DNA of 45,414 nucleotides. Source: Promethearchaeota archaeon (GTDB lineage Archaea; Asgardarchaeota; Lokiarchaeia; Sigyniarchaeales; SOKP01). Each line of letters opens with the position of its first letter. The stretch's first letter is position 1. The translations under genes were made by a program, and so were the position numbers. This document shows, piece by piece, positions 676-45,414 of this stretch. Under the pieces are notes generated by a model that searched no databases, had not been told where the DNA came from, and worked only from the letters and a program-made list of their open reading frames with translations. The DNA is taken from NCBI GenBank assembly GCA_037386725.1, contig JARRLT010000002.1:1-45414 (forward strand), given 5' to 3'.

Positions 676-710
676 TCTATTTTCCTTCTAAAGAGTTGAT
701 ATAATTTTTA

Positions 711-718: not shown

Positions 719-764
719 GTTAAAGTAGAATAATTTAAATATATCTTCTGGTAAAATTATGATG

Positions 765-773
765 AGAAAATAA
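765..773 (-). terminator. T-rich tract immediately after the encoded CCA of the tRNA-like unit
   Basis: The minus strand reads TTATTTTCT directly 3' of ...GGCCCACCA. This is compatible with an oligo-T termination signal. Confidence 0.3.
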
Positions 774-838
774 TGGTGGGCCGAGGGAGATTTGAACTCC
801 CGACCTCTTGCACGTCAAGCAAGCGTCCATGGCGTCCC
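774..838 (-). tRNA. tRNA-Val(GAC)-like 65-nt unit with a canonical anticodon arm, variable loop, T-arm, 3' acceptor strand and encoded CCA, but no D stem-loop and no proper 5' acceptor strand
   Basis: The reverse complement of 774-838 reads GGGACGC CATGGACG CTTGC TTGACGT GCAAG AGGTC GGGAG TTCAAAT CTCCC TCGGCCC A CCA. This gives a perfect 5-bp anticodon stem, a 7-nt loop T-T-GAC-G-T, a 5-nt variable loop, a 5-bp T stem with a TTCAAAT loop, discriminator A and CCA. The expected 5' strand GGGCCGA is absent here and in the next ~90 nt (no TCGGCCC on the plus strand at 839-930). Only 15 nt precede the anticodon stem. GGGACGC can pair with 5 of the 7 positions of TCGGCCC. Confidence 0.55.
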
Positions 839-851
839 AATTTTTCAAACT

Positions 852-871
852 TAATTTTATATATAAAATTA
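852..871. promoter_or_regulatory. 20-nt perfect AT palindrome carrying TTTATATA on both strands; candidate bidirectional TATA element
   Basis: TAATTTTATATATAAAATTA at 852-871 is its own reverse complement. On the minus strand, TTTATATA (867-860) sits at -29..-22 relative to G838, the first base of the tRNA-like unit. On the plus strand, TTTATATA (856-863) lies 64 nt upstream of the GTG at 927. Confidence 0.35.
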
Positions 872-926
872 TTTTATAATAACTTAAGATAAGCCAAAAT
901 TGAATTAATTTAGGAAATGAGCCAAT

Positions 927-2315
927 GTGGAGTTTCAAATTAACAAGTACATCTCAGTCAAGTTAGAAAAATTAGCAGGTCATAAACGAAGACGAACGGT
1001 TATCTATATCAATGAAGAGGAATTCATTCATTGTAAATACATATTATTAGAGATTCCAAAAGATAAGTGGAGTTCAGAAGAAATAAATGAAATTTCTTCC
1101 ATTGATGATGCTGCTGAAAAATTGGGAAGGCAATTAGAACCGCATGGTCCTGATTGGGAGGAAGATATCGATAAATTAAACGATTATTTATCGGATGAGG
1201 AAGAATTCTGGGCTCATTGCAGCAACCTTCAAGCGTGGGCTGAATATGGGTATGATACAAGGTTTTTACGTAGTAATTTGGCATTTCCATTACTCAAAGA
1301 ACTCATATATGCTGGTGATCCGAAAGCTAAAAGAATATTTAAAGAAGAAGTAGTGAAGCGTTATATTGAAGGTGATGAAAGTGTTAGAACTTTTTTAATC
1401 CTACAAGGTTACATTTCTAAACTCTCGATTGAAGAAAGAGATTTATTGTTTGGATCGGATCGAGATCAAAACGCAATAAAAGAACTAGAAGAAATATTTG
1501 AAAAAACATTTGTTCTTAGGCCGCCTAGGTATACTAATCGAACACATTTAGTAGGCGGAAGTTTCGGTCTTAGGAATAGAAAAGTGATATGGATTAACCT
1601 TTCCAGCGAAACACTTAGGCAATTACCTTTAGTATTAAAAGAGTTGAAAAATATAGAATTCTTAGAACTTTATTTTCCGAACGTTACTGAAATTCCTGAA
1701 TGGATTGGGGAATTTCCTAAATTAAAGCAATTAATAATTACCCAAACACCAATTAAAACTCTACCTGAGAACATAGGTAACCTTAAAAACTTAGAGAAAT
1801 TAGTTATAAATTGGTGTCATCTAGAAAAGATTCCAATATCAATAAAAAAATTAAAACTTTTAGTTGAATTAGACTTAAATAAAAATAAATTGAAAGAATT
1901 ACCAGAATCTATTGGAAATCTTTCTTCTCTTGAAAGTCTCTCATTAATGGATAATAAAATAAATCTGCTTCCAGATTCCTTTGGAAAATTAGAAAATTTG
2001 AAAGAATTGCTGATTAGTAAAAATGAATTTACAATTTTTCCAGATTTCATTAGAGAATTAAAAACTTTAGAAAGATTAATAATCAGCAAGAATAAAATTA
2101 AAGTGCTACCGGAATTTATTTTAGATCTTTCCAACCTCAAGGATTTAATAGTAGATCAATCAATTCAAATGTTGGATGAATTTAAAACAAATTTAGAAAA
2201 TCTAAGAAATTCTGCGAAATGTTCGAACATAAACCGTGCTCTTCCGATATCTGTACCCCTGTTGGTAAATACGGTAATGTCAACAAAATCAGTTTCTCTG
2301 AAAACACCAAGATGA
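927..2315 (+). CDS. Leucine-rich repeat (LRR) protein with an N-terminal ~220-aa domain of unknown function
   Basis: 462-aa ORF. The frame opens at 921 after a TGA, and GTG at 927 is the first possible start (no in-frame ATG until about aa 341). The C-terminal half is a textbook LRR, with repeating LxxLxLxxNxLxxLPxxIGxLxx units. The last ~49 aa (2165-2315) are encoded antisense to the end of ORF-C. Confidence 0.8.
   Translation: MEFQINKYISVKLEKLAGHKRRRTVIYINEEEFIHCKYILLEIPKDKWSSEEINEISSIDDAAEKLGRQLEPHGPDWEEDIDKLNDYLSDEEEFWAHCSNLQAWAEYGYDTRFLRSNLAFPLLKELIYAGDPKAKRIFKEEVVKRYIEGDESVRTFLILQGYISKLSIEERDLLFGSDRDQNAIKELEEIFEKTFVLRPPRYTNRTHLVGGSFGLRNRKVIWINLSSETLRQLPLVLKELKNIEFLELYFPNVTEIPEWIGEFPKLKQLIITQTPIKTLPENIGNLKNLEKLVINWCHLEKIPISIKKLKLLVELDLNKNKLKELPESIGNLSSLESLSLMDNKINLLPDSFGKLENLKELLISKNEFTIFPDFIRELKTLERLIISKNKIKVLPEFILDLSNLKDLIVDQSIQMLDEFKTNLENLRNSAKCSNINRALPISVPLLVNTVMSTKSVSLKTPR
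1587..2156 (+). repeat. 8-9 tandem ~23-aa leucine-rich repeats (protein-level repeat)
   Basis: IEFLELYFPNVTEIPEWIGEFPK / LKQLIITQTPIKTLPENIGNLKN / LEKLVINWCHLEKIPISIKKLKL / LVELDLNKNKLKELPESIGNLSS / LESLSLMDNKINLLPDSFGKLEN / LKELLISKNEFTIFPDFIRELKT / LERLIISKNKIKVLPEFILDLSN, plus flanking partial units. Confidence 0.8.
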
Positions 2316-5300
2316 TTATCATATCCATTAAATTCTCTCATAATCATTTGAAACTCCCCCTCCTTTTCACCCCACCACGAGGGGCAATTAAATCTATCGC
2401 GTTCACGCTGCGAGCTACTAAGAAGATATGATGTATCATATAATTTACCGCGCCCAAAAGTCAGGAAATGAGGTGTCATTTTATCGATATTGGTTAATTC
2501 CCCTTGCTGTACAATCGCCATGATTCGGGGATTAAATGAAGTGTAAAAAAGCATAGTTTGGATAGCTTCATGGAGTTCGTTCTCATTTTTTGGATCAAAT
2601 TTAATTTGAGATTCAGTGATTCCATATTCATAAAATTTACTAGAGATTAATCCTCTTGCGATATTAATACCAGCACCGGTTTCAGCTGAAAAAGTAATTG
2701 TAAAAGGACCATCATCCTTATGTTGTTTAAAAAGTTTATAGAAAAATATATACGCGTCTTTAAATCTACCCTTTCTCTCTTCATTAAGATGCTCTAAATA
2801 ATCTAGTATATATCCGGGCTGATGTTCATTGTTTTCACTACTATAATCTGAATGGGGGGTAAAAGTTAAGGCGTAAATGATATCCTTTTCTATTGACCTT
2901 AAAATCTCAAATGGTACTTCCACTTGAAAATCGGAATGGAAAAAATCATTTGGTCTAATTGTAGAAAGGGGACCAGTTCCACCTCTTGTTGCACCTTTAA
3001 GCTGCAATAGAGCATTAGTGCCAGAATAGAGTGCATACCGAAGAATTTCAATAAAATTTAAATTTGATCGACCTTCCCGCGTTTCAGTTTTTGATGGTCT
3101 ATCTATATAATATCCAAAGGTATATAATGCCATCTCTACTGTTCTTCGAACCCAATCTTTAGGATTTCCATTTTCAAATTGATTTGGCCAAGATCTTTTC
3201 AATTTATCTGTTACCGCCTTTTCGACTAAAGGAAAAATTTTTTCCATTAATAGTCGTTTTCCATTAACAATTTTATCGGGACCTTCAATTTCATTCACAA
3301 AATTCCAATATCTATTGTAAATAAAAATTGTTACTTTATAATAATCAGTTGACGTTTTCGGATTATACAAATTAGTTAATTCGTCAATGAATCTTGTAAT
3401 TCCAATTTTATTTGGGTTTATTTCTAACAATAATGGTTCCTCATGATTATTCAATTCAAAGGAAATCTCAAATCCTTGAGTAAACAAACTTATGAATGCA
3501 TTATATAAGGTTTTCTTGTTTTTACTGCCATAACTAAAAGGGTGTTCCCCGCGCTTTCCATTAGGGATAACTTTAGATTCAAAGAGCATCGAACCTAAGG
3601 AAATTTTTTTATGCTTACTTGTTTCTACTTCCCAATTATTGTTAAAGGATTGACCAACACCCCAGAAGTTGAAAATAAATTGCCCATTTAATTTACTAAT
3701 ATGCATAATCCCTAAATACAACAACATTAATGTAGGATAGCCGAGAAGATCTAATAATTGCTCTTTTACAGCTTCAAATAGTTCAGGTATATCTTCTTCA
3801 TTATCAAATGACAATCCTACATATTCTCTTGGAAAATTCCTGAAATAACTATTCTCTCCACGTATTTCAATATCTTTTTTAATAATTTGAAACCAAGTTT
3901 TAAAAAACCCTAGATTCCCTGCAAAAGAAGGATTCCTCTTTATATCAATTAAAATTCCATCTTTATATTCTTTTGTAGCATAACGGTTAATTTCCTCAAA
4001 TTTATTTGAGTCCGAACCAAAGTTACCTATTAACGTATTAAATATTTCTTGATACCCGTTATAAGTATATTTAATTTTATCTTCAAGTAGATTAAAGAGA
4101 TCATCCCTAAAGGCAAGTTCCTGTATTTTCTCTGAAAGAGATTTAATACCTATAAGTTTATACAATTTGAAAAATAAAGTATCCATTTGGTTTATTATCC
4201 AATCATTTTTATCAATTTCCTTTTCTTCCTTAATAATTACACCTTCGTTATATCCTTTATTAATTTTCGATTCCTTGTATAGATTATAAGGAAAAATTCC
4301 TTGATACTTCTCAATAAATCGAGTGTTAAGTATATCTCTCTGAAAAAATGGAATGAGTTTCTCACCTGTAATTTTCACCATTGATCGGTAATGGTTTATT
4401 AACATATCTCCTCTAGTAGTTTCGATTATATTTGAGTGAAGATATTTTTCAAACCAATTTTCTTTCTCGATTTTAAATTGCTTATTCTCAAAGTCAAGGG
4501 AAATAAGACCGTTTAAAAGATAACCTTCTTCGTCAGTAATAAAGATGTCAGGTAAAATTAACTGTTTGTCTGAATCGTAAAAACCTAAACACCAATCCGT
4601 AGGAAGGTCTTCAAGATACATTGCAGAAATCATTCCTCGTTCCCCAGTTCTTTTGTTATACATATGCACCATAACACTTGAAATTTCTCTATCTCCTATT
4701 TCATTAATTGTTTTTAAAGTACTGGTCGCTGAGTCATAAATTTTGAACTCTGCGGGAAATAATATTGTTCGCGCTTTAATATCACTCTTAAAATAGTGAA
4801 CGATTACCTCTTGCCATATCAATATAAATTTATTATTTGGCAGTTCTCGCAAGAGTTTTCCCGCATCCATCGTAAAAGTATCCATAATTTCTTCATATTC
4901 TTGATCCCAGTTTTCCAACAATTGTGCAAATTTTGTTATATCTTCCACTAAACCTTTTTCCTTAGAATAAATTTCCAGTGCAAATTCTTTGATCTTAAAG
5001 TAAGCTTCGTTAGTATTGAAAAATTCGTCTAGTTTATCTTCACATTGTCCCTCAGATAACAATCCATTAAATAGATTTTTACCATTGATAAAGTCAACAA
5101 TTCGTTCCATTAATTCCATATGTAGTTTTCCCTTGGATATCCCTTTAATATTCTTTATATCCTTTATTTTGGTAATTTTTACGTAATTCTTGAACATTTC
5201 ATATATCATACTTGAATCTGTTATGGGAGAAACTAAAAATGAAATATGCTCTGGACCTAAAACATTTTTCAAACTCATTGTTCTCGAAAAATGAAAAAGG

Positions 5301-35321: not shown

Positions 35322-38300
35322 TGAGATTCGGAAATATTAAATCTTGGAGTAAATGAAAAATCCTTTATCTCTTGAGAATAACAAGCAATGAATTCATGTC
35401 CGTTTAATTTTGAATCAATTTCAGTTCTAAATTCAACTAGTAAATCTGTATCATCACCTTTAAGCATAGTTTTTCTCAGTAGTTCTAAACATACATCTTT
35501 TTCTCCAGAGTAAGAAATGTCTTCAATATTAAAGGATAAAATATGCTCCTTAAACCCCAAATTATCTTGATTAATATCCGATATGAATGTTCCAATTGAA
35601 ATCTTTTCGTCAGTGTAAGAATTATAACTGAAAATATCCGCTATGGCTTTATAAGAAGTTATCGAGAATCGTGATTCTGAAAATCTTGAGCGATCAAATC
35701 CTGAAGTAAAGTCAATTCTAAATGAACCGGTTATGAAATCTGAGTCTGAATCAATTATATTGTATCCATATATAAAGTTATCTTGAATTGAAGGAATACC
35801 AACTTGGGATCCATTAAAAGAACTATAAAAGACAGCACCCGCAGGAATTCCCACGAGTTGAGTTGGTTGAGTAAAATTTAAGAAAAGATCACCTATTGCA
35901 TCTGTTCCTAAGGTATAATTAACTTTAATATCAGGATGCGAGAAAGTACCAAAGATTTCAGCATCGTCTCTTACATTAGTAATAAATAATGGATCTGAAA
36001 ATTGAGTATTTCCAAGGGTAATAGAATTTGGAATATACCAGTAATTATCTCTATATTCAAGATAAATCTGAGGAACATATTCGATATTTATATATTTAAA
36101 GAGCCCTTTATACATAGGATCAAGAATAAGTTGATCTTCTGTCACTTCGAATTTTGTAAGCGGATAATCATAAATAATATCGTCATAATCTTCCTTAAGT
36201 CCTTTAATTCCAACTAGATCACCAAAATAAGGTATATTTGATAAATTAAACTTGAGATAATCTTTTGCTATTAACTGATTAGAAAGAGTTGCTACTGAAG
36301 TTATTCCTTTTGAACCTTTATATCTTGAAGCGATAGGAGTAAATTGATAGGGAATATTATGAGGAATTACCATCCAATTTTCTGAATTAGGATTCTCCCA
36401 TTGTAATGAAAAGTTTGTATTCGCAAAATATTTATTAAATGCGGAAAAAGATGTTGTATTTGTGGTTCCACTATATTTATTAAATTCAGTATCTAGATAG
36501 GTTTTTTCACTTTGAGTGTAGGATTCATAAGCATAGACTATTTTTATATGGGTTAATTGAGAATATATCGAACTCAAATCTAAAATAATCTCCCATCTTG
36601 AAAAATCATATTTATCTTTTGAAAGTTCAAACCATCCAAGAGAAGTCTTATACATAACCTTCTCGATCCTATCGACCGGAGTATATTTTAAGGTGATTGT
36701 TGGAGTATTACTTGTGAGATTACTTTTAGAAAAAATTTCATAAGCCGGAAGTAAAGGTTTACTAAAATCAAAAATATCTGTATTATGGATAAGAGTGTAT
36801 TCAAAAATCCCTTTAGTAGAAGCAATAACAAGTTTTTCTTCGGAGTTTTCATTGATTGCAAGTAAATCCAAGATATGTAATCTTCCAGTATCAAACCCCG
36901 AGAGCTCATATTTTTCCCACTCTCCCGTATTTACATTATGCTCATAAACAATTACTCGATCTCTTTCTCCAATTATAGACAAATCTAGCCCAACGGATAC
37001 TTTATCATAATTATCATTTCGCAGGAATTCTATCACGGAAATCTTTCCCAAAATAGATTCCTCAATGATATGTTCTAATTTAAAGTTATAGTCTAATAAA
37101 AGAAGTTTTGAATAATAGGACTGATTGATGAATCCCCCAAGAAGAATCGCCTTTTTATTGAAATAGGTGAAATTTTCTACAATTTTAATAGATGTTGGAA
37201 GAATGTTATAATCAAGCGTAGTCTCAGCTTGTTTAATTAAGTTAAAATTTGTTCCAAATTGATATTTTGCCAATATTATATTTTCATCGACGGAGACTGA
37301 AGCTGAAACCGCTATGCTATTACCGTCAATTTTATTTGCATCAAAAGCTAAAATTTCAGTATTTTGGATATTGGTTACATTACTCTTTAATTTCCATGAG
37401 TAAGTGGTAGTATTAAAATAAAGAATATCGATTCTATTTGGTAATATTCTTATAATTTCTTGGAATCCATCATTATTTGTGTCAAATAATTTAAATCGTT
37501 GACCTTCGATAGATGTAATTGGATCTTCTAACTTGCTTAAATCAAAGTCATTAGTCCAACCTGAGATGAAAGAGTAATTAAAAATGGAAAGATGAAGATT
37601 TTCTTGCTCTCTAGAAATAATTATCGGTTGATATATTCCCCTAGAAAACATCCCCCATGACCCATAGAGATTTTGATCAGTTTCAGGTGTAACCAAGAAT
37701 GGTAGATATGAAGTACTTGTGTTTTGCATATTTTTTAAGAAATCTATATCTTGATTCATATCCCATGTAATCTCATATCGCGTTCCCGCATATTCTGTAG
37801 TTGTTATTAATGCAGGATTCGTATAAAGATCAATCCATCTATATCGTGCAGAGTCATAATATTCAGCAATGATTGACCAAAATTGTTCGTTATCAAAATA
37901 ATTAGTAATTTGGCCATCAATAACTTGGAGATTCTGCGGTTCGGAGGGGTCATACTCGAAAATTTGCTCATATAATATATTAGTAAGCAATTTAATGTTG
38001 GAATAGTCATAAATTGCTATAGGGGCTATTTCAGAAATATAATTATGTCCATAATCGAATAAAGTTACTCGTATATAATTAATACTTGAAATCTGGTCTA
38101 ACATTGAGGGTGTAACAACTAAAGCCCATTTATCGTAGCCTAGAAAAGTGAATTTTCCTATTTCTTGCCAATTAGCTTGAATTTCACTTCCATAGGCAAT
38201 TATTTCTTTTATATCCATCGTGCCGAGACGGGTTCTATTTGTGATTGATGTATTTAATAAAAGGGTACAATCTGAAAGGTCTTCTGTTCCTAAACACAAG

Positions 38301-41300
38301 ATTCCATTATTTGAAGCGTCTTTTCCAAGATTCCATCGATATAGAGTTCCTTCGCTTTTGTCAATATGAGGGTCATAAGATCCCTCGAATTTCTCTGAAA
38401 TTAAGACATTCGGCATTCTTAAATAATGTGTAGCATATCCATTTCCATCTTCAAGTTCAAACCAAAATAAGAACTTATCTTGATCTATAGCATTATTATA
38501 TTCGGAAATATTAAATTGATCTAATATCCATTTATGGGTACCCAGATCAAATGTTAATGGTATTTTCTGAGGATTTAACTCATAAAATTCAGCATAAATA
38601 AAGTTAGAATATGATGGATTTAGCAAATATCTGTAATCTTCATCAATTTTAACAAATAAGGCTCCCCCTTGGGTAATAAGTTCAAATTCTACCTTCTTTC
38701 CATTTATAAAAATTTGTTGCATTTCCTTAATTAAAGATGTATCAAAAATTACAGGATCTCCAAATCCTATTATTTTATACAGATAGTCATCAAAACTTAA
38801 AGGAGTATCTAAAAGAAGCTTTTGATAAGATAAAGGATTAGTGTATCTCATTGAGACATTATATACTCCTTTTTTATGACCAAGAAGAGCCTCAATATCA
38901 CCCCAATCAAACCCATCATAAGTAATATCTTCGGCTGTAAGAGATATATTGTCATTTCCATTAAAGTATAATCCTTCAGTTATCTCGAAAACTTCCTCAG
39001 TACCTTCAAAATACACTGTATGTGTGATTTCATTTAATACGGGAGGAATTGCATCAAAATATCTGTCTAATTTATAAGCTTCTCTACTATTTCCTGCTTG
39101 ATCAGTACAAATTACAAAAACACTATAATTTCCAGGGGGGAATTGAGTCACATCAATTAGAAATTGCCATCTATCAACATCAATTTGCTTTTTTGAATAA
39201 TCAAAATCAGTATAGATGGTTCCCGTAGCATCACGCTCTAATCTAAGGTCTAAAGTATAATACCCAGATGCTTCATTAATGTTTACAATTATACTATATA
39301 ACCCAGAAAAGGTGAATTCTTCATTGGTAATCTCTGTAAATTCTGGTTCAAGATTATCAATATATAATGTAAAGGTCGTAAAGGAACTTTGATTTAACAT
39401 ATCGACGCAAGTAAGCTTGTAAGTATAATTTCCATCAATTAAACTGCTATCATTGAAATGGAAAATATAAGAAGTATCAATTACTTCCCAATATCCTAGG
39501 ATTGATACATTAAGATTCCAATCTTTTATAGTGGAAGGATCATAAATTTCAAATTCTATAGTTCCGTTTTCTGGATTTATACACTTATCAATTTGCTCCT
39601 CAGTATTTCCAAATAATTTCGTAATTTGAGGACCATCATAATCAAATAAATAATTATTAATTGCGTAGGTACTTATGGTTCCTGAAATATCTTTGAAATA
39701 CGCTTTCAATTTATAATATCCTTGAGGAAGGGTTGTAAAATTATAGGAGCCAACATATTGGGAGTTTGTCCTTAAAGAAGAGGTTGTGAGATAATCGATT
39801 TCGATATCGCTTATAGAATCAAGATATTCATTGCTATCTAAGGTTATCAAAATATTACTTGAATCGATAAGATAAGAAAACTCATAAGACGTTCCATTTA
39901 CATAAACATTTTGGACAGAGCAAATATCATTTGGAAGTAGGATCGGTCTTGGTATAACGAAATAATTCTCTTGGATTTCTATATTAGGATAAAGCTCATT
40001 ATAAGTGGAATCGTAATTCTCATGGAATACAATTGTATCGACTAGTCTATTTTTAGAATCCCATATTCCTAAATATGGGTAACTATTATCAACAATAAAA
40101 GGAATACCTTGAGAATTATTATATGAATCATACGAAGTAGCAAAAGAGAGATATACATTATCTATTGCAGCATAATCAATCCATGAAAGATCATTTATTT
40201 GTATCACATCTTTATAAGCGCTATATGTTGCTGTAATTATTACTTGATCAACCCCGACAACCGTTTGATTTTGATAGTATCTAATAGTTATAGGGATATC
40301 TACAAAATCCGTTCCATAAATCGAATAAAAAATTGGGGTTAAGGCAATATCATCATTATTCTGATATGAATCTTCAAAAATGTAATTATTCCCTAAACAT
40401 TCTCTATATGATAAAATAAAGGATTCATAGGGAGTACTTACCCTTATACTTGAAATATCATTATCATAGGGTTTAATTGAAACGTTAAGATCAATTAAAC
40501 CATTCTTATTCACAGTATAATAAGGTGCATCAAAACCGTTAATTATAAATTCGCCTTCATTAAAATTTTTTATAAAGTAATAAGAATCATTAGTAAGAAT
40601 AAAACTATTTCCAAAACGATCATATGATATTAATCGGAAATGAACTTTGGAGTCTCTAAGATTTTTAATGTTAAATTGTATTAATTTAGGAAGTTCTTGA
40701 ATGGTATAGGTTTCAAATGTGATCCAAGTGGCTTCTGGAGTATCATATTTGAAGTCCAGCCGGATAGTATCAATATCATCTAAAGTAGAATTAATGAGAA
40801 GATTGAGATAATAATCTGATGGATCATTAAAGACTTTTGGAAACTCTATTTGCTCAAGATAAATAACAGGAGAATTAAAGTCAATTATAATCGGATCTAA
40901 ACTATAATTATAATAATAAAATTTTTTAAATGGAGAGAATGTAAAATTTGCATCTATTATAAAACTGGCATTAAATTCCCCATCTTCAAGTCCATTTTGA
41001 ACTTTCCAATCAAGAAGCGAATTCAATGGAATAATATTATAATGAGAACTAAGATAAGAAGAGGAAAATGAATTTAAATAGTCAATATTATCAGAATAAT
41101 TAACATATAAATCTATAGAATTAATTTGCCCTCCAAAATCTTGGATCGCGTCTATAGAAATCTCAGAATTATGATTAATTCTTCCTTGTAAATCTAAATA
41201 CAAAATATCTAACGAATCATGAAAATGATCAATTTCAAAATATCCTGTTGCATTATTTATCGAATAAGCAGAATATGCGATATTTTCAAAGGACCCTCCT

Positions 41301-44300
41301 GTATTTCCAATTACCTTTGCAATAAAATACCAATTAGAATCTGGAATATCGCGTGAATTCATAACATAGTTATAAGAAGCTTGCTCAATATCAAATTCTT
41401 TAATCTTAGTCCATAATCTCTCATTAGGAGAAGTCATATTTGGATTTGTATCCGATAAATAAAATTCCACCTTATCGATAGGAGTGCGAGGATTTAATTC
41501 TACTTCACTGTTAAAAAGAATGTAATCTTCTAAAGATTCTCCTTGAGAAATTGGAACCCACCCTTCTTCCTCACTGTCTTTTAGAATAGAAACATTTGCA
41601 ATAGTAATTTGATCATATTTTAATAGTTCAATATCAAAGTTAGATAGGGCCTTCCGATAGATCCTAAATTCATCAATTTTTCCATTAAAGGAAGATATAT
41701 TGAATCTATCTCCACCTAAGGTAAGATTATCACCTAAATTGATAAACATGGAATCGATCCATGGTTGAGAAACATCTCCAATACTAGAATTAAACCATTT
41801 ATCTCCCAAAAAGACATTAACCTCACCTTGATCGAACCTCAAGGCAAAGAAAGAATATTTGTTTACATCAATACTTTTATCGCCATAAACTGCTGTAACC
41901 TGATTATTTTCTCCATCGATATATACATGTAATCGAGAATTATAGATTCCCAACTCAATATTTCCAGAAGAAAAGAATAGATTGGTAACATTATTTACAG
42001 ATTTTGAGCTTGAAAAGCTTGAAGGATTTATAAAACCAGTAATTGTAAATTCTGCATTAGTTTCAAATATATTCCCAGCAATTGAAGAATAATTGATATA
42101 ATCTTCATTGCTTTCTGAAAAATATAATCCGGAACCAATAACACCATCTGTCCATGTAGTATTCCCCATAAGTAAGCCCATATAATTTTCGGCTGAATCA
42201 TGAGTAACTGATCCAGAAGATTCGTTAAACTGAGCATGAAACGCAAGATCGGGTAATGGAGGTGTATAATAGTATGAAAAGGGTTCATCAAAAATTAACC
42301 ATCCAAAGATCTCATCAGAGTGATCTCTGGAACCGACATCATTTCTATTCTGAGTTTCCTCAGCATAAACTTGATATTGAGTAGTTGAATGATATCCTGC
42401 TCCACGAGCTAAGGAACTTTCTGGTTCAGATTGAGTTTGCTGATCTACAAAAATAAGCGGTTTTTTAGAATATGACTTAACATATGTGATAGAATGCGGA
42501 GTGTCATCAACTCCATCTTTGGTACCATCATTGGCTAATCCTGTTTCCCATATATGATTTTCAAAAATACCAGATTTGCCTGCTTCAATTGCAATATATG
42601 AGATTCTTTCACCTACGGTCGGAATAGGTTCAAAACCATTTGCTTGTTGAATGGTAAATGATGTTGCACTTGAATTATAAAGTATTGAATGTTTATATTC
42701 ATTATTATAATAGTTATTTAGAGAAAAAAGGACTACTGGTGTTGAAGTGAAATTTTGAGTAAAATCAACTGTAACTCCTTCATATGCATCACTATCAGTG
42801 TGAACTGAATCTGTAAATACTGAATTCGCTTCAATTTTTATATTATCTGGAGAAAGTTCCCAATTCCCTTTCTCCATGATAATATAACTTACATTTTCAG
42901 GAGTGTGATTATCCCCATCTCTTTCTTGCATAAATAACACACATGAAGTGGAATTGACATCTTTAACCCGAACTTCTACCGATTCATCTCCCTCTCTTGT
43001 TTCTATATGAGAAATAACAACTGGATCTTGATATTCGTTTTCGAACATGATGAGTGAAGAATATCCATAATCAATCGTTCCGTATATAATTGTTCTTCCT
43101 ACCTCAAATTGAAATACGGGAGCGATAGAATTTCTTAAACTATCAAGAAATTCATCAATAGTTGGTAAATTATCCGGATAATTATCACCATCCTCATCTA
43201 TAAAAAATCGATTTCCATTAATCGGATCTTCTAATCCTATATATTCATCTTGGAATAACTCATTATAAAGAGCAGTTTCAACATGTCCTGCCGCTCCAAG
43301 CATGTTCATGCGAATACTTCCATAGATTATATGCTCATAGTGGAAGTATCCGAATTTATCGGTGTTTATGGTTGCGATGGGATCACCATAAGTAACCCCT
43401 CTCTGTAAATAAAGATCTAATTTATCTAATTGTACCCCTTGACCAATTGAATTTATCACTTGTCCAGCAAAGGTTACATTCCAGTATTCTTCCGTTGCCA
43501 TAGTTGTTATGAATCCTGCTTCATACCCATATTTTGATTCTATCTCAAAAGGATCTGCTGAGAGTATTTTTAAATTGTCTTTTCCTAACTCTAAATTATA
43601 AGTATTTGGCTGGGATTCTCGGTATCCAAATCCCGAGAGTAATCCATAGGAAATTTTAAACTCATATTTTCCAGGATTTAATTTTAACTCATTAAACTTT
43701 ATCTTCACAAATAACTTTCTACTAAATCCAAATCGGGAATACTCTGAAAAAAGGTCATAATCATCTTCTATATCTCTTCCTTCAACTTCGGTGACATTAA
43801 TTGGGTTGATTCGTACGTGAATAACTCCTGATTGACCGAAGATTGGATCAGAAAAGCATCTAACTACAATTTCATCATTGATTGTAAACATTTGAGAAAA
43901 GTCAAAATCTTCTTCAAAATTTAAGTCTCCATAAAAATTACCACCCGAAATTCGTAGATCAGAGGGTACACGAGCAAATTCTAATGGAGGCGTGGTGACA
44001 GTTCCCAAAGAATTAACTCCAAATACAAGGGGTAAACACACCAAGAAAAAACACATTAAGATCGTAGCTCTAGGGTGTCTTACATTAGAAGGATCATATT
44101 TTTTGAACCCTTTTCTCTTTATGCCAAATCTTCTTTTTAATGTATTGGAATATTCGTATTTTCGCTCATTAATCTTTTTCTGCTTGTAATATTTACACTT
44201 TACAGTAAAAATTACAATCACTATCAAAATAATCATGGTAGGCAATCCTAAATAATCGGGTGCCCATATAAAGCAAAATCCAAAGAATCCCACAGAAATA

Positions 44301-45247
44301 AGAAGTAGTATGAATAAAATCCGAAGTTTCGCCGTGTGATACAATAAATATAACGATTTACGAGGTTGTTTAATTGATAGAGAAATATTCTCTGGGAGTT
44401 CTATAATTAAGATAGAAATTAATGATGTTAATAGTGAAAAGATAAAAGATTTGTAAAAGAGGAGAAAAATAGGTATAAGTCCTCCTAATATTAATATCGG
44501 AATTACTCTTCTATTTTTATCTTTTAATTTAATAATACCGTACCCTAAAGAAGCAACATATATCACTCCTTGACAAATAGAAAGAAAAGAAAGTATTGCA
44601 GGAAGAGAAACATGGAAATAAACACTTGTAAAAAATCCTGGAATAACGGTCAAAATAAATAGGAGAGGTAGGAAAAAACCCATAAAAATTCGCTTCTTGA
44701 GCTTTTCTTTGTTAACAATTAAATCGTTATTATGCGTTTTTAATTTTCTTTTGCCTTTTCCCTTTTTATGCTTATATCCACTTCTTTTTAACGTTCTTTT
44801 TATTTTAAATAAGTGGAAAGAACTTTTGAAGTCATATTTATTAAGGATCTCTAAACAAAGCTTTTTGATTAATAAGATCCTAACTCTTGAAAGGTTAATT
44901 TGAGAGATTCGTTCTTCAAACGTTAACCGGTTTTTAGAAAATTTGTATAAATCATCTTTAAATGTAAACCCAAGTATTTTGGAACAAGATAGATGAAAAA
45001 TAATACTTTTATAAGCATTTACTAATATTACTGCTCGACTAATGAGTGATAGCTGTTTAGATGTGAAAAGTGAAAGTATTTCTTCCAATGGTTCCACGCA
45101 AAATTCGATTTCATATTGAGATACATTATAGCGCTTCAATATATCTTTTATGTGAACTAAATTTAAAGCAAATTGAATGATATTATTTCCTTTTGAATAA
45201 TCCAAGACATCTTTTAAAGATTCATTTGAAGAAAACAAACCTTTCAT
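35267..45247 (-). CDS. Giant ORF-A: 3,326-aa protein with an N-terminal cytoplasmic-looking domain, ~7 TM helices and a very large beta-rich ectodomain (LamG_3, Ig-like, FG-GAP-like modules)
   Basis: 10-kb open frame. The ATG at 45247 overlaps the TGA of the upstream ORF (ATGA). Hydrophobic helices lie at aa ~187-349 and 394-412. A LamG_3 domain lies at aa ~1001-1212 (GKIDEFRIYRKALSNFDIELLKY; residue-to-coordinate mapping verified at N1188 = 41686). Ig-like endings carry the DxxGN motif. There is a single DxDxDG loop (FIDEDGDNYPDNLP). The ORF ends ...SQWNGEQVEKKLMKQPMKL-TAG. Confidence 0.85.
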   Translation of the reverse strand: MKGLFSSNESLKDVLDYSKGNNIIQFALNLVHIKDILKRYNVSQYEIEFCVEPLEEILSLFTSKQLSLISRAVILVNAYKSIIFHLSCSKILGFTFKDDLYKFSKNRLTFEERISQINLSRVRILLIKKLCLEILNKYDFKSSFHLFKIKRTLKRSGYKHKKGKGKRKLKTHNNDLIVNKEKLKKRIFMGFFLPLLFILTVIPGFFTSVYFHVSLPAILSFLSICQGVIYVASLGYGIIKLKDKNRRVIPILILGGLIPIFLLFYKSFIFSLLTSLISILIIELPENISLSIKQPRKSLYLLYHTAKLRILFILLLISVGFFGFCFIWAPDYLGLPTMIILIVIVIFTVKCKYYKQKKINERKYEYSNTLKRRFGIKRKGFKKYDPSNVRHPRATILMCFFLVCLPLVFGVNSLGTVTTPPLEFARVPSDLRISGGNFYGDLNFEEDFDFSQMFTINDEIVVRCFSDPIFGQSGVIHVRINPINVTEVEGRDIEDDYDLFSEYSRFGFSRKLFVKIKFNELKLNPGKYEFKISYGLLSGFGYRESQPNTYNLELGKDNLKILSADPFEIESKYGYEAGFITTMATEEYWNVTFAGQVINSIGQGVQLDKLDLYLQRGVTYGDPIATINTDKFGYFHYEHIIYGSIRMNMLGAAGHVETALYNELFQDEYIGLEDPINGNRFFIDEDGDNYPDNLPTIDEFLDSLRNSIAPVFQFEVGRTIIYGTIDYGYSSLIMFENEYQDPVVISHIETREGDESVEVRVKDVNSTSCVLFMQERDGDNHTPENVSYIIMEKGNWELSPDNIKIEANSVFTDSVHTDSDAYEGVTVDFTQNFTSTPVVLFSLNNYYNNEYKHSILYNSSATSFTIQQANGFEPIPTVGERISYIAIEAGKSGIFENHIWETGLANDGTKDGVDDTPHSITYVKSYSKKPLIFVDQQTQSEPESSLARGAGYHSTTQYQVYAEETQNRNDVGSRDHSDEIFGWLIFDEPFSYYYTPPLPDLAFHAQFNESSGSVTHDSAENYMGLLMGNTTWTDGVIGSGLYFSESNEDYINYSSIAGNIFETNAEFTITGFINPSSFSSSKSVNNVTNLFFSSGNIELGIYNSRLHVYIDGENNQVTAVYGDKSIDVNKYSFFALRFDQGEVNVFLGDKWFNSSIGDVSQPWIDSMFINLGDNLTLGGDRFNISSFNGKIDEFRIYRKALSNFDIELLKYDQITIANVSILKDSEEEGWVPISQGESLEDYILFNSEVELNPRTPIDKVEFYLSDTNPNMTSPNERLWTKIKEFDIEQASYNYVMNSRDIPDSNWYFIAKVIGNTGGSFENIAYSAYSINNATGYFEIDHFHDSLDILYLDLQGRINHNSEISIDAIQDFGGQINSIDLYVNYSDNIDYLNSFSSSYLSSHYNIIPLNSLLDWKVQNGLEDGEFNASFIIDANFTFSPFKKFYYYNYSLDPIIIDFNSPVIYLEQIEFPKVFNDPSDYYLNLLINSTLDDIDTIRLDFKYDTPEATWITFETYTIQELPKLIQFNIKNLRDSKVHFRLISYDRFGNSFILTNDSYYFIKNFNEGEFIINGFDAPYYTVNKNGLIDLNVSIKPYDNDISSIRVSTPYESFILSYRECLGNNYIFEDSYQNNDDIALTPIFYSIYGTDFVDIPITIRYYQNQTVVGVDQVIITATYSAYKDVIQINDLSWIDYAAIDNVYLSFATSYDSYNNSQGIPFIVDNSYPYLGIWDSKNRLVDTIVFHENYDSTYNELYPNIEIQENYFVIPRPILLPNDICSVQNVYVNGTSYEFSYLIDSSNILITLDSNEYLDSISDIEIDYLTTSSLRTNSQYVGSYNFTTLPQGYYKLKAYFKDISGTISTYAINNYLFDYDGPQITKLFGNTEEQIDKCINPENGTIEFEIYDPSTIKDWNLNVSILGYWEVIDTSYIFHFNDSSLIDGNYTYKLTCVDMLNQSSFTTFTLYIDNLEPEFTEITNEEFTFSGLYSIIVNINEASGYYTLDLRLERDATGTIYTDFDYSKKQIDVDRWQFLIDVTQFPPGNYSVFVICTDQAGNSREAYKLDRYFDAIPPVLNEITHTVYFEGTEEVFEITEGLYFNGNDNISLTAEDITYDGFDWGDIEALLGHKKGVYNVSMRYTNPLSYQKLLLDTPLSFDDYLYKIIGFGDPVIFDTSLIKEMQQIFINGKKVEFELITQGGALFVKIDEDYRYLLNPSYSNFIYAEFYELNPQKIPLTFDLGTHKWILDQFNISEYNNAIDQDKFLFWFELEDGNGYATHYLRMPNVLISEKFEGSYDPHIDKSEGTLYRWNLGKDASNNGILCLGTEDLSDCTLLLNTSITNRTRLGTMDIKEIIAYGSEIQANWQEIGKFTFLGYDKWALVVTPSMLDQISSINYIRVTLFDYGHNYISEIAPIAIYDYSNIKLLTNILYEQIFEYDPSEPQNLQVIDGQITNYFDNEQFWSIIAEYYDSARYRWIDLYTNPALITTTEYAGTRYEITWDMNQDIDFLKNMQNTSTSYLPFLVTPETDQNLYGSWGMFSRGIYQPIIISREQENLHLSIFNYSFISGWTNDFDLSKLEDPITSIEGQRFKLFDTNNDGFQEIIRILPNRIDILYFNTTTYSWKLKSNVTNIQNTEILAFDANKIDGNSIAVSASVSVDENIILAKYQFGTNFNLIKQAETTLDYNILPTSIKIVENFTYFNKKAILLGGFINQSYYSKLLLLDYNFKLEHIIEESILGKISVIEFLRNDNYDKVSVGLDLSIIGERDRVIVYEHNVNTGEWEKYELSGFDTGRLHILDLLAINENSEEKLVIASTKGIFEYTLIHNTDIFDFSKPLLPAYEIFSKSNLTSNTPTITLKYTPVDRIEKVMYKTSLGWFELSKDKYDFSRWEIILDLSSIYSQLTHIKIVYAYESYTQSEKTYLDTEFNKYSGTTNTTSFSAFNKYFANTNFSLQWENPNSENWMVIPHNIPYQFTPIASRYKGSKGITSVATLSNQLIAKDYLKFNLSNIPYFGDLVGIKGLKEDYDDIIYDYPLTKFEVTEDQLILDPMYKGLFKYINIEYVPQIYLEYRDNYWYIPNSITLGNTQFSDPLFITNVRDDAEIFGTFSHPDIKVNYTLGTDAIGDLFLNFTQPTQLVGIPAGAVFYSSFNGSQVGIPSIQDNFIYGYNIIDSDSDFITGSFRIDFTSGFDRSRFSESRFSITSYKAIADIFSYNSYTDEKISIGTFISDINQDNLGFKEHILSFNIEDISYSGEKDVCLELLRKTMLKGDDTDLLVEFRTEIDSKLNGHEFIACYSQEIKDFSFTPRFNISESQWNGEQVEKKLMKQPMKL
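35294..35301 (-). promoter_or_regulatory. A8 homopolymer forming an A_AAA_AAA -1 slippery heptamer in the ORF-A frame, inside the ORF-A/ORF-B overlap; candidate recoding, phase-variation or assembly-indel site
   Basis: The plus strand has T8 at 35294-35301. In the ORF-A frame the minus strand reads GTA GAA AAA AAA TTG ATG ... TAG. In the ORF-B frame it reads AGT AGA AAA AAA ATT GAT GAA. ORF-A codons start at positions congruent to 1 mod 3 and ORF-B codons at 2 mod 3, so a -1 shift connects them. Both frames are open across 35336-35270. Confidence 0.5.
36850..37520 (-). other. FG-GAP/VCBS-like beta-propeller-type region in ORF-A
   Basis: LFDTNNDGFQEIIRILPNRIDILYF..., AFDANKIDGNSIAVSASV..., KKAILLGGFINQSY..., DRVIVYEHNVNTGEWEKYEL... 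The pattern is blade-like, with DxNxDG loops. The assignment rests on resemblance only. Confidence 0.35.
39040..39960 (-). repeat. Three tandem ~100-aa Ig-like beta-sandwich domains in ORF-A with G.Y.h.h...D..GN...h.h..D..(P)P endings
   Basis: QGYYKLKAYFKDISGTISTYAINNYLFDYDGPQI (~39690), GNYTYKLTCVDMLNQSSFTTFTLYIDNLEPEF (~39390) and PGNYSVFVICTDQAGNSREAYKLDRYFDAIPPVL (~39090), spaced ~300 nt apart. A related ending, KVHFRLISYDRFGNSFILTNDSYYF, lies at ~40600. Confidence 0.5.
41612..42247 (-). other. LamG_3 / concanavalin A-like lectin domain in ORF-A (aa ~1001-1212)
   Basis: LAFHAQFNESSGSVTHDSAENYMGLLMGNTTWTDGVIGSGLYFSESNEDYINY...EFTITGFINPSS...YSFFALRFDQGEVNVFLGDKW...FNGKIDEFRIYRKALSNFDIELLKY. 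It has the full canonical order of PF13385 elements. Confidence 0.75.
42278..43105 (-). repeat. Three tandem ~85-95-aa modules in ORF-A (aa ~712-989) with an H-type-lectin-like sequence pattern
   Basis: Each unit has Fxxx(Y/F)xxxP(V/L)(V/I), then a (N/S)(V/S)(T/S)xx(S/G)(C/F)xh strand, then an E-rich loop with H/E..E.hxYhhhE. Unit a: SLIMFENEYQDPVVISHIE...VKDVNSTSCVLFMQE...HTPENVSYIIMEKG. Unit b: VTVDFTQNFTSTPVVLFSL...YNSSATSFTIQQ...ERISYIAIEAG. Unit c: SITYVKSYSKKPLIFVDQ...HSDEIFGWLIFDEP. Confidence 0.35.
44006..44689 (-). other. Transmembrane block of ORF-A: six helices, a polybasic loop and a seventh signal-anchor-like helix
   Basis: IFMGFFLPLLFILTVIPGFFTSV / SLPAILSFLSICQGVIYVASLGYG / VIPILILGGLIPIFLLFY / FIFSLLTSLISILIIEL / LRILFILLLISVGFFGFCFIW / LPTMIILIVIVIFTV, then KCKYYKQKKINERKYEYSNTLKRRFGIKRKGFKKYDPSNVRHPR, then ATILMCFFLVCLPLVFGVNSLG. 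The distribution of basic loops fits the positive-inside rule, with the N-terminus inside and the giant domain outside. Confidence 0.65.
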
Positions 45248-45414
45248 TCTGCTCTCGAGATCTGCTCGATAGGTCTTTTCAAGAAAATAATATTTATTAA
45301 GTAAGAATTGAATATCAGTTTCAAGTTTTTCACTTCCTGCCGTTTAATCAGTTCAACGGCAGAAGCCACATGGCTTATTGTAAACAAACATAACCTGAAG
45401 CCTGACGACGTGGA
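45244..45414 (-). CDS. 3' end of an upstream ORF (edge-truncated), translationally coupled to ORF-A through an ATGA overlap
   Basis: Manual translation of the minus strand from 45414 gives 56 sense codons, STSSGFRLCLFTISHVASAVELIKRQEVKNLKLIFNSYLINIIFLKRPIEQISRAE, followed by TGA at 45246-45244, which overlaps the ORF-A ATG (45247-45245). A stop-free run of this length is unlikely by chance in DNA this AT-rich. It is absent from the track because it has no start inside the window. Confidence 0.4.
   Translation of the reverse strand, partial: STSSGFRLCLFTISHVASAVELIKRQEVKNLKLIFNSYLINIIFLKRPIEQISRAE

Follow-up and report, generated by a model that had tools for sequence, protein, structure and literature searches.

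Asgard archaea have been reported to have most of the archaeal proteins longer than 10,000 amino acids, and the function of these 'huge proteins' is described as not understood (PMC11573180; bioRxiv 10.1101/2023.11.21.568195). The nanohaloarchaeal 'SPEARE' proteins were proposed to act in cell-cell contact and effector transfer (PMC10266531), and the VARTIG modules, which have variable downstream genes, were described as resembling polymorphic toxin systems in their organization (PMC8416519). Among immunity proteins, Imm-LRR forms a recognized class (PMC3482391). There is also a precedent for giant genes that appear broken, as fixing a local assembly error turned two adjacent giant ORFs into one 74,983-aa gene (bioRxiv 10.1101/2023.11.21.568195).

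Here we analyzed a 45,414-nt stretch of DNA (the window) from an uncultivated archaeon, Ca. Lokiarchaeota (Promethearchaeota, Asgard). A first-pass annotation had described three consecutive minus-strand ORFs of 3,326, 8,863 and 2,208 aa, overlapping by 55 nt (A/B) and 62 nt (B/C) and met by an upstream frame through an ATGA overlap. We confirmed this geometry in the sequence; the stop TGA of the upstream ORF at 45246-45244 overlaps the ORF A ATG. The reading of the locus as a cassette of several proteins did not hold. ORFs A, B and C are almost certainly consecutive pieces of one evolutionary gene (~43.1 kb, ~14,400 codons in all), whose fused product of ~14,360 aa is a member of a conserved, uncharacterized family of Lokiarchaeal giant surface proteins. 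The genes are laid out as follows:
45244-45414, minus strand: incomplete upstream ORF, running in from beyond the window end, with 56 codons in view
35267-45247, minus strand: ORF A, 3,326 aa, of which 3,318 aa form the N-terminal part of the giant protein
8730-35321, minus strand: ORF B, 8,863 aa, supplying the middle 8,850 aa (ectodomain and conserved C-terminal module)
2165-8791, minus strand: ORF C, 2,208 aa, supplying the C-terminal ~2,190 aa
927-2315, plus strand: leucine-rich repeat (LRR) protein gene, matching Pfam LRR families, convergent on the giant gene

The single-gene reading follows from relatives in other Lokiarchaeal genomes, which carry a single stop-free frame across both junctions, two of them at A/B and at least 13 at B/C. 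At A/B, P0010 (6,636 aa) and L019 (a stop-free frame of 7,390 aa) are colinear with ORF A up to its last residues (A 1874-3325 and 1666-3325, respectively) and then with ORF B from aa 64; ORF B is colinear with P0009 as well as with these two. At B/C, the frame of P0009, P0002 and 11 genomic loci extends 1,100-2,300 aa past the module that ends B, and this extension matches C aa 19-570. In a profile built from 11 relatives, nodes 2-151 match the B frame and nodes 167-272 the C frame, colinearly. Homology reaches both breaks in the upstream frame and then resumes in the downstream frame, leaving gaps of ~15 profile positions at B/C and 13 aa at A/B. ORF C had been taken for an orphan partner, but its residues 19-570 are conserved in all relatives, within their single ORFs, and its distal tail in L016, L009 and L007. 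Nor did the upstream ORF prove to be a syntenic partner: its visible 56 codons gave no Pfam match and no similarity to the relatives' N-termini, and L020, the sole relative with readable 5' context, has no co-directional gene upstream. The conserved neighbor is the LRR gene, outside the stretch 2165-45414 to which the cassette had been assigned.

A lineage-specific gene fission, in which a 7TM giant, another giant and a 2,208-aa partner would be made as three separate proteins under translational coupling and would assemble into a multi-protein surface apparatus, is thus very improbable. ATG codons do lie near both junctions, and GGAG stands 12 nt upstream of the ORF C ATG, but the parts sit in one frame in all relatives, and B and C proteins would have N-termini with neither signal nor anchor. 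The annotation of a second assembly of the same population, JARRLU010000003.1, likewise has three genes, but it lends this view no independent weight, because fold-back has made that assembly chimeric at each of the two sites.

We compared this second assembly with the window. The two are 100.000% identical over 10,027 and 9,954 nt, with near-identity across 16.6 kb, and JARRLU010000003.1 departs from the window in three short stretches, two of which begin exactly at the frame changes:
35189-35321, minus strand: junction 1 (A to B), with a -1 change at the A8 run 35294-35301
8699-8791, minus strand: junction 2 (B to C), with a +1 change at about nt 8738-8750
2055-2200, no strand assigned: third discordant stretch, taking in the ORF C stop and the LRR gene's 3' end

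Window stretch 35189-35300 is missing from the second assembly and 8699-8738 is altered in it, the two junction stretches there being fold-back copies of upstream sequence. The C-frame profile match begins at nt 8737, one base inside the second discordant stretch, while the third creates a 150-nt overlap of ORF C with the LRR gene. The A8 run at junction 1 exceeds every other homopolymer of the 43 kb in length. Since each ORF border coincides with a point at which an otherwise identical assembly diverges, the borders, which are present in the window sequence as first annotated, are probably not features of the organism. From the breaking of the second assembly at the frame-change nucleotides, we infer that the breaks are probably local faults of short-read metagenome assembly. 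Three points count against such faults: a 1-nt homopolymer error is unusual in Illumina data, a slippery heptamer compatible with recoding (A_AAA_AAA) lies in the zero frame at A/B, and the window's own junction sequences are unique, coding-like and supported by homology.

The heptamer and the junction sequences would also favor breaks that are real in the organism, either through recoding or as recent frameshift mutations. Recoding would involve a -1 shift at A_AAA_AAA, by ribosomal frameshifting or by slippage during transcription, and a +1 shift near CAA_TTT_AGA, so that longer read-through products accompany a short anchored one; mutation would amount to surface-protein phase variation at the homopolymer or to decay into a pseudogene. 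The zero-frame heptamer, GA[A AAA AAA]T, coincides exactly with the switch, a zero-frame stop comes 9 codons later, and no other A8 run occurs in the gene. Among archaea, Sulfolobus fucA1 is a known case of -1 frameshifting on A-AAA-AAT. However, the breaks are not conserved, with relatives continuous at both sites, and the sequence downstream showed no RNA structure (z = -0.40 and +0.54). At the +1 site there is no stop context and, AGA being a common codon at 31% GC, no hungry codon. The gene contains 96 in-frame X_XXY_YYZ heptamers, which makes a single one weak evidence, and an early stop after any shift is expected in AT-rich DNA. Real breaks, moreover, do not explain why the second assembly breaks at exactly these two nucleotides, and we consider them unlikely.

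Read as one gene, the locus very likely encodes a surface-anchored adhesin-like protein, with an ectodomain of ~11,000 aa that is mostly beta-rich. This agrees with the earlier description of a huge membrane-anchored, mostly beta-sandwich cell-surface protein of an uncultivated archaeon. From the N-terminus, we found:
44006-44728, minus strand: polytopic membrane anchor, A aa ~174-414, 7-8 helices by hydropathy
43208-43990, minus strand: two tandem Ig/FnIII-like beta-sandwich domains, A aa ~420-680, membrane-adjacent
42653-42772, minus strand: H-type-lectin-like stretch, A 826-865, Pfam H_lectin at 21.4 bits, below cut-off
41630-42094, minus strand: Laminin_G_3, A 1052-1206, Pfam E = 7e-13
22722-33704, minus strand: ancient-repeat zone, B ~540-4200, units of ~355-390 aa at 24-32% identity
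31656-32120, minus strand: Laminin_G_3, B 1068-1222, Pfam E = 2e-21
21876-22337, minus strand: Laminin_G_3, B 4329-4482, Pfam E = 4e-15
8802-12491, minus strand: conserved C-terminal module, B 7611-8840, 30-39% identical to 14 Promethearchaeota loci
10821-10877: second conserved hydrophobic segment, by hydropathy
9162-9311, minus strand: conserved hydrophobic hairpin-like segment, B 8671-8720, by hydropathy
2180-7990, minus strand: C-terminal hydrophobic helices (C ~250-480), then the distal tail

The K/R-rich N-terminus (K+R = 16.8% in the first 400 aa) would be cytoplasmic, with the 7-8 transmembrane helices that follow anchoring the protein. The membrane anchors of the first-pass annotation correspond to hydrophobic helices at A 187-414; the AF2 model has helices in this region, and A 170-600 has 37 homologue clusters. 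Next would come the two Ig/FnIII-like domains, the H-lectin-like domain and the LamG_3 domains. The two Ig/FnIII-like domains were modeled by AF2 with pLDDT mostly 80-97 and matched by Foldseek to transglutaminase C-terminal barrels, IL-6R and RbmA (E ~1e-5). Big_13 matches in Pfam were weak and sub-threshold. The H-lectin-like module is sub-threshold in the window and significant at the equivalent position of a homologue, P0033. All three LamG_3 domains named earlier are strong in Pfam, and a fourth, at B 459-559, is borderline. No profile matched the six claimed ConA-like modules or the FG-GAP-like DxDxDG loops. The view of the locus as non-repetitive DNA encoding anciently repetitive protein was borne out by the repeat zone of B and the lack of notable DNA tandem repeats. 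No enzyme family was matched by the giant protein in Pfam or NCBIfam, as anticipated; neither were RTX, LPXTG or PGF-CTERM signatures, a T1SS signal, near-identical tandem repeats, a Walker A motif or an ATPase found.

A cultured Asgard archaeon glycosylates its proteins at N-X-S/T (PMC11284389). The ectodomain is enriched in this site, with 52 and 68 sites observed against 32.9 and 32.6 expected in the window and up to 83 against 38.6 in relatives. The ancient-repeat zone of B largely coincides with a site-poor zone (7 observed, 45.8 expected). Judging by these counts, the site-rich ectodomain is probably a glycan-coated stalk, and the site-poor LamG-like repeat zone within it is probably a binding zone.

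The ectodomain would be followed by the conserved module, whose hydrophobic segments, at about -170/-100 and -660 from the module end, are present in the window and all relatives, and the protein would end in the ~1,900-aa distal tail. This tail is alpha-rich, K/E-rich, variable between lineages and free of N-X-S/T sites; its AF2 model (pLDDT 32) is of low confidence and informative for secondary structure only. Across the distal tails of 16 family members, 2 sites were observed versus 164.8 expected (Poisson 4e-68), whereas the reverse motif occurs 153 times. In L014, L015 and P0002, relatives outside the window's own lineage, sequences 80-95% identical from -1200 to +300 fall abruptly to ~20% beyond +300 to +600, and their downstream ORFs are mutually unrelated. 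The LRR gene is the conserved neighbor of the long-tail subfamily: in each of the six long-tail members, the gene directly downstream encodes this LRR protein or a homologue of it (as immediate neighbor in the relatives L016, L009, L007, L012 and L008). The window's LRR protein has a non-LRR N-domain of ~250 aa followed by the LRRs, with no transmembrane segment or signal sequence.

We tentatively suggest that the tail may be an exported, polymorphic effector-like region. It would have to remain glycan-free despite export, would be swapped or diversified between close relatives and would pair with a cognate cytoplasmic neighbor, here the LRR protein. If so, the locus would be an archaeal counterpart of contact-dependent polymorphic effector/immunity systems, borne on a giant adhesin. 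Against this stand the size of the tails (1,000-2,000 aa, very large for a delivered domain), the convergent orientation of the LRR gene, whereas immunity genes are usually co-directional, and the lack of any toxin or enzyme family above threshold in the tails, the PD-(D/E)XK match at the C-terminal end of P0009 being sub-threshold (19.7 bits, E = 8.6e-4).

A K/E-rich helical tail would also fit a cytoplasmic domain, so that the single gene could instead encode an adhesin with a membrane anchor at either end, its tail binding the LRR protein as an adaptor for signaling or a cytoskeleton link, with no exported effector. The conserved hydrophobic segments do precede the tail, the tail is K/R/E-rich while the ectodomain is acidic and N/S/T-rich, and the LRR partner, without signal or transmembrane segment, is neutral in N-X-S/T (4 versus 3.1 expected). 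Nanohaloarchaeal giants were likewise reported with an ectodomain and a C-terminal ATPase domain (PMC10266531), although no such domain was found here. A cytoplasmic tail should, however, be neutral in N-X-S/T, as are the neighboring non-membrane ORFs (80 observed, 85 expected), rather than show 2 of 165, and it diverges abruptly beside an extracellular trunk of 80-95% identity, the opposite of what adhesins usually do. This arrangement appears to us somewhat less likely than an exported tail. With moderate confidence, we favor overall one giant surface-protein gene split by probably artefactual breaks and encoding an anchored adhesin with a possibly effector-like tail.

Like RTX/T1SS giant adhesins (LapA, SiiE, MpIBP), this protein is a cell-anchored, very long beta-sandwich chain with lectin-like modules, but it comes from an archaeal host and has none of their RTX repeats, T1SS signal or near-identical tandem repeats. 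It shares a giant membrane-anchored ectodomain with Ig/LamG-type domains with the 'SPEARE' proteins (8,880-9,409 aa; PMC10266531), which differ in their N-terminal Sec signal and C-terminal VirB4/TraG-like ATPase; here the anchor is polytopic and no Walker A or ATPase was matched. Bacterial polymorphic toxin systems such as CdiA and Rhs (PMC3482391) also combine a long filamentous trunk with a C-terminal region abruptly variable in close relatives and adjacent genes that co-vary with it, LRR proteins being among their immunity classes. Here, no recognized toxin domain, pre-toxin motif or known secretion domain is present, the variable part spans 1,000-2,000 aa, the LRR gene is convergent and the host belongs to the archaea, among which classical systems are rare; the comparison is one of likeness and not of established membership. 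By description alone, VARTIG modules of Thermococcales (PMC8416519) are alike in being large archaeal Ig-domain surface proteins with a recombining hypervariable C-terminus; they are far smaller, vary in an Ig domain and are restricted to Thermococcales. The archaeal 'huge proteins' resemble the product in far exceeding 5,000 aa, carrying LamG_3 near the N-terminus and having few other Pfam matches; their surveys give counts and domain tallies only (PMC11573180; bioRxiv 10.1101/2023.11.21.568195), and do not describe the polytopic N-anchor, conserved C-terminal module, site-free polymorphic tail or LRR neighbor. Finally, the giant genes of Omnitrophota belong to another phylum and protein family with many enzyme domains, but they too appeared as adjacent giant ORFs on one contig, split by a local assembly error (bioRxiv 10.1101/2023.11.21.568195), as we propose for this locus.

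The three giant open reading frames (ORFs A, B and C) lie on the minus strand of a window of ~31% GC across its entire length, with the following positions, neighbour and Pfam matches.

35267..45247, minus strand: ORF A, 3,326 aa
8730..35321, minus strand: ORF B, 8,863 aa
2165..8791, minus strand: ORF C, 2,208 aa
927..2315, plus strand: LRR gene, convergent on the giant ORFs
A 1052-1206: Laminin_G_3, strong Pfam match
B 1068-1222: Laminin_G_3, strong Pfam match
B 4329-4482: Laminin_G_3, strong Pfam match
B 459-559: Laminin_G_3, borderline Pfam match

Successive ORFs overlap by 55 nt (A/B) and 62 nt (B/C), and the ATG of A is overlapped by the TGA closing a frame that is open from the window end. 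The first-pass annotation had reported this geometry, the ATGA overlap and three LamG_3 domains, all present in the sequence, and its description was accurate apart from the unverified 'six ConA-like' and 'FG-GAP-like' items. Hydrophobic helices were found at A aa 187-414, sub-threshold Pfam matches to H_lectin and Big_13 in A, and ancient protein repeats (24-32% identity) in B 540-4200. Pfam gave no match in B 4501-8863 or in C, and A, C and the end of B were likewise without an NCBIfam match. The window holds no DNA tandem repeats of note and, by Rfam and ARAGORN, no RNA gene at threshold. The 56-codon upstream ORF was rejected as a lost N-terminal piece, having no similarity to the longer N-termini of relatives.

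Word-indexed homology searches were nearly empty, with A matching only itself and C giving one distant match, and exact-sequence look-ups of C and of the LRR protein led to no contig. ORFs A and C share clusters with MEJ2248096.1 and MEJ2248098.1 from a 'Candidatus Lokiarchaeota archaeon' MAG, and every relative found came from a Promethearchaeota (Lokiarchaeal) MAG or a sediment metagenome. One 11.5-kb contig (locus L015, JAAKFN010000045.1) is labelled 'Candidatus Anoxychlamydiales bacterium'; its family member shares 80-90% identity with L014 and P0002, both Lokiarchaeal, and the contig is probably archaeal and mis-binned.

In relatives, the sequence on either side of both ORF junctions is encoded in single frames. 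Across B/C, the homologous protein P0002 aligns first with the final ~1,250 aa of B (34% identity) and, further along the same polypeptide, with C aa 19-570, and P0009 (Loki's Castle; 6,917 aa, partial) spans B 127-8795 followed by C 19-377. Scanning genomes with the conserved module at the end of B (B 7611-8840; 1,230 aa) returned 14 loci sharing 30-39% identity with the window over the module. At 11 of the 14, a stop-free frame runs from at least 10 kb upstream (or the contig edge) through the module and 1,100-2,300 aa beyond it; the tails of all 11 match C 19-570, and those of L016, L009 and L007 also match C 793-2197. Across A/B, P0010 (6,636 aa, partial) spans A 1874-3325 and B 64-5266, and the 22-kb metagenome locus L019 holds a single 7,390-aa open frame spanning A 1666-3325 and B 64-7070. 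The window is colinear with P0009, P0010 and L019 at 31-44% identity over thousands of residues. Because these frames continue through sequence matching C, ORF C is the C-terminal part of the protein and not the orphan partner it had been taken for. The 'overlapping-ORF cassette' itself is most likely not real. Fission into three true separate genes, set against these continuous frames, is highly improbable. By colinear homology of trunk and C-terminal module, the window protein belongs to an unnamed Lokiarchaeal giant surface-protein family (P0009, P0010, L005-L019).

Family members are routinely fragmented in assemblies. In the Zod_Metabat.578 MAG, two contigs carry one piece each (L006, L020), an N-terminal one at the end of its contig and a C-terminal one, and the two may be a single giant gene broken across contigs. 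P0002 (2,483 aa; L001 9764-10001) and the L018 protein (2,033 aa; L018 9968) have nothing related further upstream. Since homology extends as far as the upstream stop codon and no start codon is present, these 'short forms' were rejected as autonomous genes; rather than complete genes, they seem to be remnants truncated at the 5' end, or contig chimeras. Isolate 33X4 is the source of both L010 and L018, and two module-bearing loci in a single MAG indicate paralogues.

Joining the three ORFs requires a -1 shift from A to B and a +1 shift from B to C. At A/B, homology in the A frame ends at '...WNGEQVE' and restarts in the B frame at 'TTYEIVED', with a 13-aa gap relative to P0010. Between the two ends lies GA[A AAA AAA]T, the gene's only A8 run and its longest homopolymer; A9 in its place would bring A and B into one frame. 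At B/C, a profile of 11 relatives is matched by the B frame over nodes 2-151 (to B's stop) and by the C frame over nodes 167-272 (from nt 8737), leaving ~15 profile positions missing; by eye, B-frame homology persists through 'YNANLQF'. A single 65-nt deletion at this second junction was rejected, the length difference from relatives being spread over several in-frame gaps.

A second assembly of the same population (contig JARRLU010000003.1; loci L003 and L004) matches the window at 100.000% identity along 10,027 and 9,954 nt and at close to full identity along 16.6 kb. It departs from the window at four places.

35189-35300: discordant stretch 1, against 83 nt in the second assembly; begins at the A run
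8699-8738: discordant stretch 2, against 34 nt; begins one base before the C-frame match
2055-2200: discordant stretch 3, against 95 nt; stop of C and end of the LRR gene
838/839: complete divergence of the two assemblies

Agreement ends at the exact nucleotide of each frame change. The second assembly's stretches 1 and 2 are fold-back chimeras, inverted copies of sequence ~110-190 nt upstream; the window's own versions are unique, and its stretch at junction 2 encodes the homology-supported QYNRIIPTVLNQK. Both frame breaks are probably assembly artefacts, in which a short stretch would have been uncrossable by either assembler and the window bridged out of frame. A published case, where two adjacent giant ORFs were merged once a local assembly error had been corrected (bioRxiv 10.1101/2023.11.21.568195), supports this reading.

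Shifts that are genuine in the organism seem unlikely. The A run places a zero-frame X_XXY_YYZ heptamer in the A frame at 35294-35300, which fits -1 frameshifting, but the whole gene contains 96 such in-frame heptamers, no RNA structure follows either the A/B site (MFE -11 kcal/mol, z = -0.40 versus shuffles) or the B/C site (z = +0.54), the +1 site is without known frameshift context, and the shift is unconserved, the frames of relatives being uninterrupted at both sites. A phase-variable A run, or a recent decay into a pseudogene, is also conceivable.

Stretch 3 concerns the end of the gene. In the window, the LRR repeats continue through it and ORF C ends '...FSKFVLNSSNI'; in the second assembly, ORF C ends '...VFVESEYDIKKVTIRDLTYNGLFTL', the LRR protein is shorter (382 aa), and the LRR and giant-gene stops abut, as in relatives. 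The 150-nt overlap of C and the LRR gene in the window is due to this stretch. Alignment scores for the last 26 residues of C, in either version, were within shuffle noise.

Window positions 1-838, beyond the last divergence point, may stem from a chimeric join. A tRNA-Val(GAC)-like piece at 777-838 (minus strand), which lacks a D arm and has its CCA encoded (27.7 bits for Rfam tRNA, against a gathering score of 29), starts exactly at 838/839. The second-assembly locus L003 carries at ~17933-18047, oppositely oriented, what appears to be a complete tRNA-Val with an intron, its anticodon stem showing compensatory changes; ARAGORN detects neither. At 1-675 (minus strand), in the contig part absent from the second assembly, lies an ORF cut off by the contig start; its product is a polytopic, Cys-rich (CxxC-type) membrane protein with no Pfam match.

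With the breaks taken as probable assembly artefacts, the fused model of A, B and C is 14,360 aa long, with joints at aa 3318 and 12166. Its first 400 aa are rich in lysine and arginine (16.8%), which suggests a cytoplasmic N-terminus. For the region A 170-600, a search of 1.84 billion representatives gave 37 homologue clusters; LamG_3 lies downstream of the TM region in all five homologues scanned, with H_lectin as well in two, and the order common to longer homologues is TM region, H_lectin, LamG_3. AF2 with a 29-sequence alignment (pLDDT 72) modelled eight helices and, after them, two beta sandwiches at high confidence, whose fold matches (transglutaminase C-terminal barrels, IL-6R, RbmA) place them, as modelled, in the Ig/FnIII type. 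The trunk is ~95% free of Pfam annotation. Hydrophobic segments conserved in the family are predicted at ~-660, -170/-100, +270 to +400 and +440 to +520 residues relative to the module end, and the content of K, R and E is higher in the tail, the distal region encoded in ORF C, than in the trunk. Module and long-tail profiles found no solved-structure relative by sequence, even at E <= 1, and single-sequence AF2 of C 1009-2208 reached a pLDDT of 31.8.

The fused protein is zoned with respect to N-X-S/T, the motif at which a cultured Asgard archaeon glycosylates (PMC11284389).

Table. N-X-S/T sites in the fused protein, observed/expected, with the reverse motif as control
aa 400-3200: 52/32.9
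aa 3600-7200 (repeat zone): 7/45.8; reverse motif 47
aa 7600-10400: 68/32.6
aa 12000-14360: 1/18.6; reverse motif 17

In the trunks of relatives the motif is enriched 1.5-2 fold, and it is sparse from about -680 onward. The tails of 16 family members, taken from +270 to the stop and amounting to 22,723 aa, contain two sites versus 164.8 expected (P = 4e-68), one of them being the window's 'NSS' within discordant stretch 3; the same tails contain 153 reverse motifs, and 157 N-x-[DE] versus 169.5 expected. Thirty neighbouring non-membrane ORFs gave 80/85 for N-X-S/T. Since a cytoplasmic domain is expected to be neutral, the tail seems to meet the glycosylation machinery and yet to be under selection to remain unmodified. 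A giant protein anchored at both ends, its cytoplasmic tail bound by an LRR adaptor, is a rather doubtful alternative against this neutral expectation. No TM segment separates the site-poor repeat zone from its site-rich flanks, so site avoidance occurs in the extracellular part of the protein. The site-poor zone (window 23649-34451; B aa ~290-3890) is N/S/T-rich over ~3,600 aa, overlaps the ancient LamG-like repeats and is mirrored only partly in P0010.

The tails are also polymorphic. L014, L015 and P0002 share 80-95% identity from -1200 to +300 and ~20% beyond; this abrupt divergence was seen among relatives, the window having no close relative for comparison. Distal tails form subfamilies or are unique, and the immediate downstream gene co-varies with tail type. 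A homologue of the window LRR protein, including its non-LRR N-domain, stands next to all six long-tail members; the LRR gene is convergent in the window, L016, L009, L007 and L012, and in L008 only the N-domain is present. The neighbours of L006 and L018 are LRR-only proteins, L005 and L010 have a different small ORF in common, present twice in L010, and the downstream ORFs of L014, L015 and L001 are mutually unrelated. The L010 copies (18032-18761), directly downstream of a short-tail member, are tandem 113-aa paralogues, 79.6% identical, in a layout resembling an immunity-gene array; their homologue in L005 has a marginal DUF2695 match, the sole Pfam family among the small downstream ORFs of relatives. 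The C-terminal end of P0009 has a sub-threshold PD-(D/E)XK match (PDDEXK_1 at 19.7 bits) and the L015 tail a sub-threshold ArenaCapSnatch match (E = 0.089); the other tails scanned held no known domain, and the window tail gave nothing in Pfam or NCBIfam.

The best supported reading is a giant adhesin-like filament, coated with glycan and anchored at its N-terminus. The C-terminal module together with the tail may constitute an effector region that is exported, polymorphic and free of glycan, paired with a cognate partner in the cytoplasm; this reading, plausible though less than probable, is analogous to polymorphic toxin systems and VARTIG. Against it stand the lack of a toxin fold, the very large tails and the convergent partner gene. 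That Lokiarchaeia carry a native archaeal-type contact-dependent effector system is a speculative extension, on the doubtful side. Its carrier would be a membrane-anchored, glycan-coated filament of ~14,000 aa, bearing at its far end a module active on membranes and a large effector region that recombines. All N-glycosylation sites would have been purged from that region, allowing it to leave the producer unmodified, and a cognate cytoplasmic partner (LRR or another protein) would be encoded alongside.

When metagenome bins show adjacent 'overlapping giant ORFs', the first presumption should be one gene broken by local assembly faults, a reading that relatives and a second assembly supported here without reads. 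The repaired gene, of a family spread through Lokiarchaeia, would encode ~14,360 aa, compared with 9,409 aa for the largest protein of a cultivated archaeon (PMC10266531). Lokiarchaeia are without S-layer, and the cell-cell contacts that bear on eukaryogenesis are attributed, tentatively, to their 'complex surface proteins' (PMC9834061). The N-X-S/T zoning and the polymorphic C-terminus with its conserved neighbour are new observations; near-absolute site exclusion in the tail, abrupt C-terminal polymorphism and the LRR neighbour offer testable handles on the role of these giants and raise a possible polymorphic effector system in archaea, where classical ones are rare (PMC3482391).

Earlier surveys list huge archaeal proteins bearing LamG_3, as well as Asgard proteins >10,000 aa, without characterising them (PMC11573180; bioRxiv 10.1101/2023.11.21.568195). 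The window agrees with the former, defined by >5,000 aa and an N-terminal-side Laminin_G_3 (PMC11573180), with B alone at 8,863 aa and LamG_3 at A 1052-1206. RTX/T1SS adhesins carry C-terminal RTX nonapeptides and a T1SS signal, whereas Pfam scans of A, B and C gave no RTX-type family; PGF-CTERM (archaeosortase)/S-layer proteins end in a sorting signal, which Pfam and NCBIfam did not find in C or the end of B, as the first-pass annotation had judged by eye for both types of terminus. SPEARE-type proteins have a C-terminal VirB4/TraG-like P-loop ATPase; the window has no such match in Pfam or NCBIfam, and the Walker A motif [AG]x4GK[ST] is absent from the fused protein and from every relative's tail, on which ground a SPEARE-like ATPase was rejected. 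Polymorphic toxin systems share the abruptly divergent C-terminus on a conserved trunk, as in L014, L015 and P0002. They employ a known export or trafficking domain (T5SS, T6SS, T7SS), whereas Pfam found none in the window, whose N-terminus is a polytopic anchor. They also have a downstream immunity gene, Imm-LRR being a known class (PMC3482391); here the neighbours co-vary with the tail, and the LRR gene, a candidate at most for an immunity role, is convergent in the window's subfamily. The locus has only some of the defining features of such systems, and VARTIG modules (PMC8416519) offer an analogue for a polymorphic C-terminal region with a partner. By class, the window protein is a variant of the giant archaeal surface adhesin.
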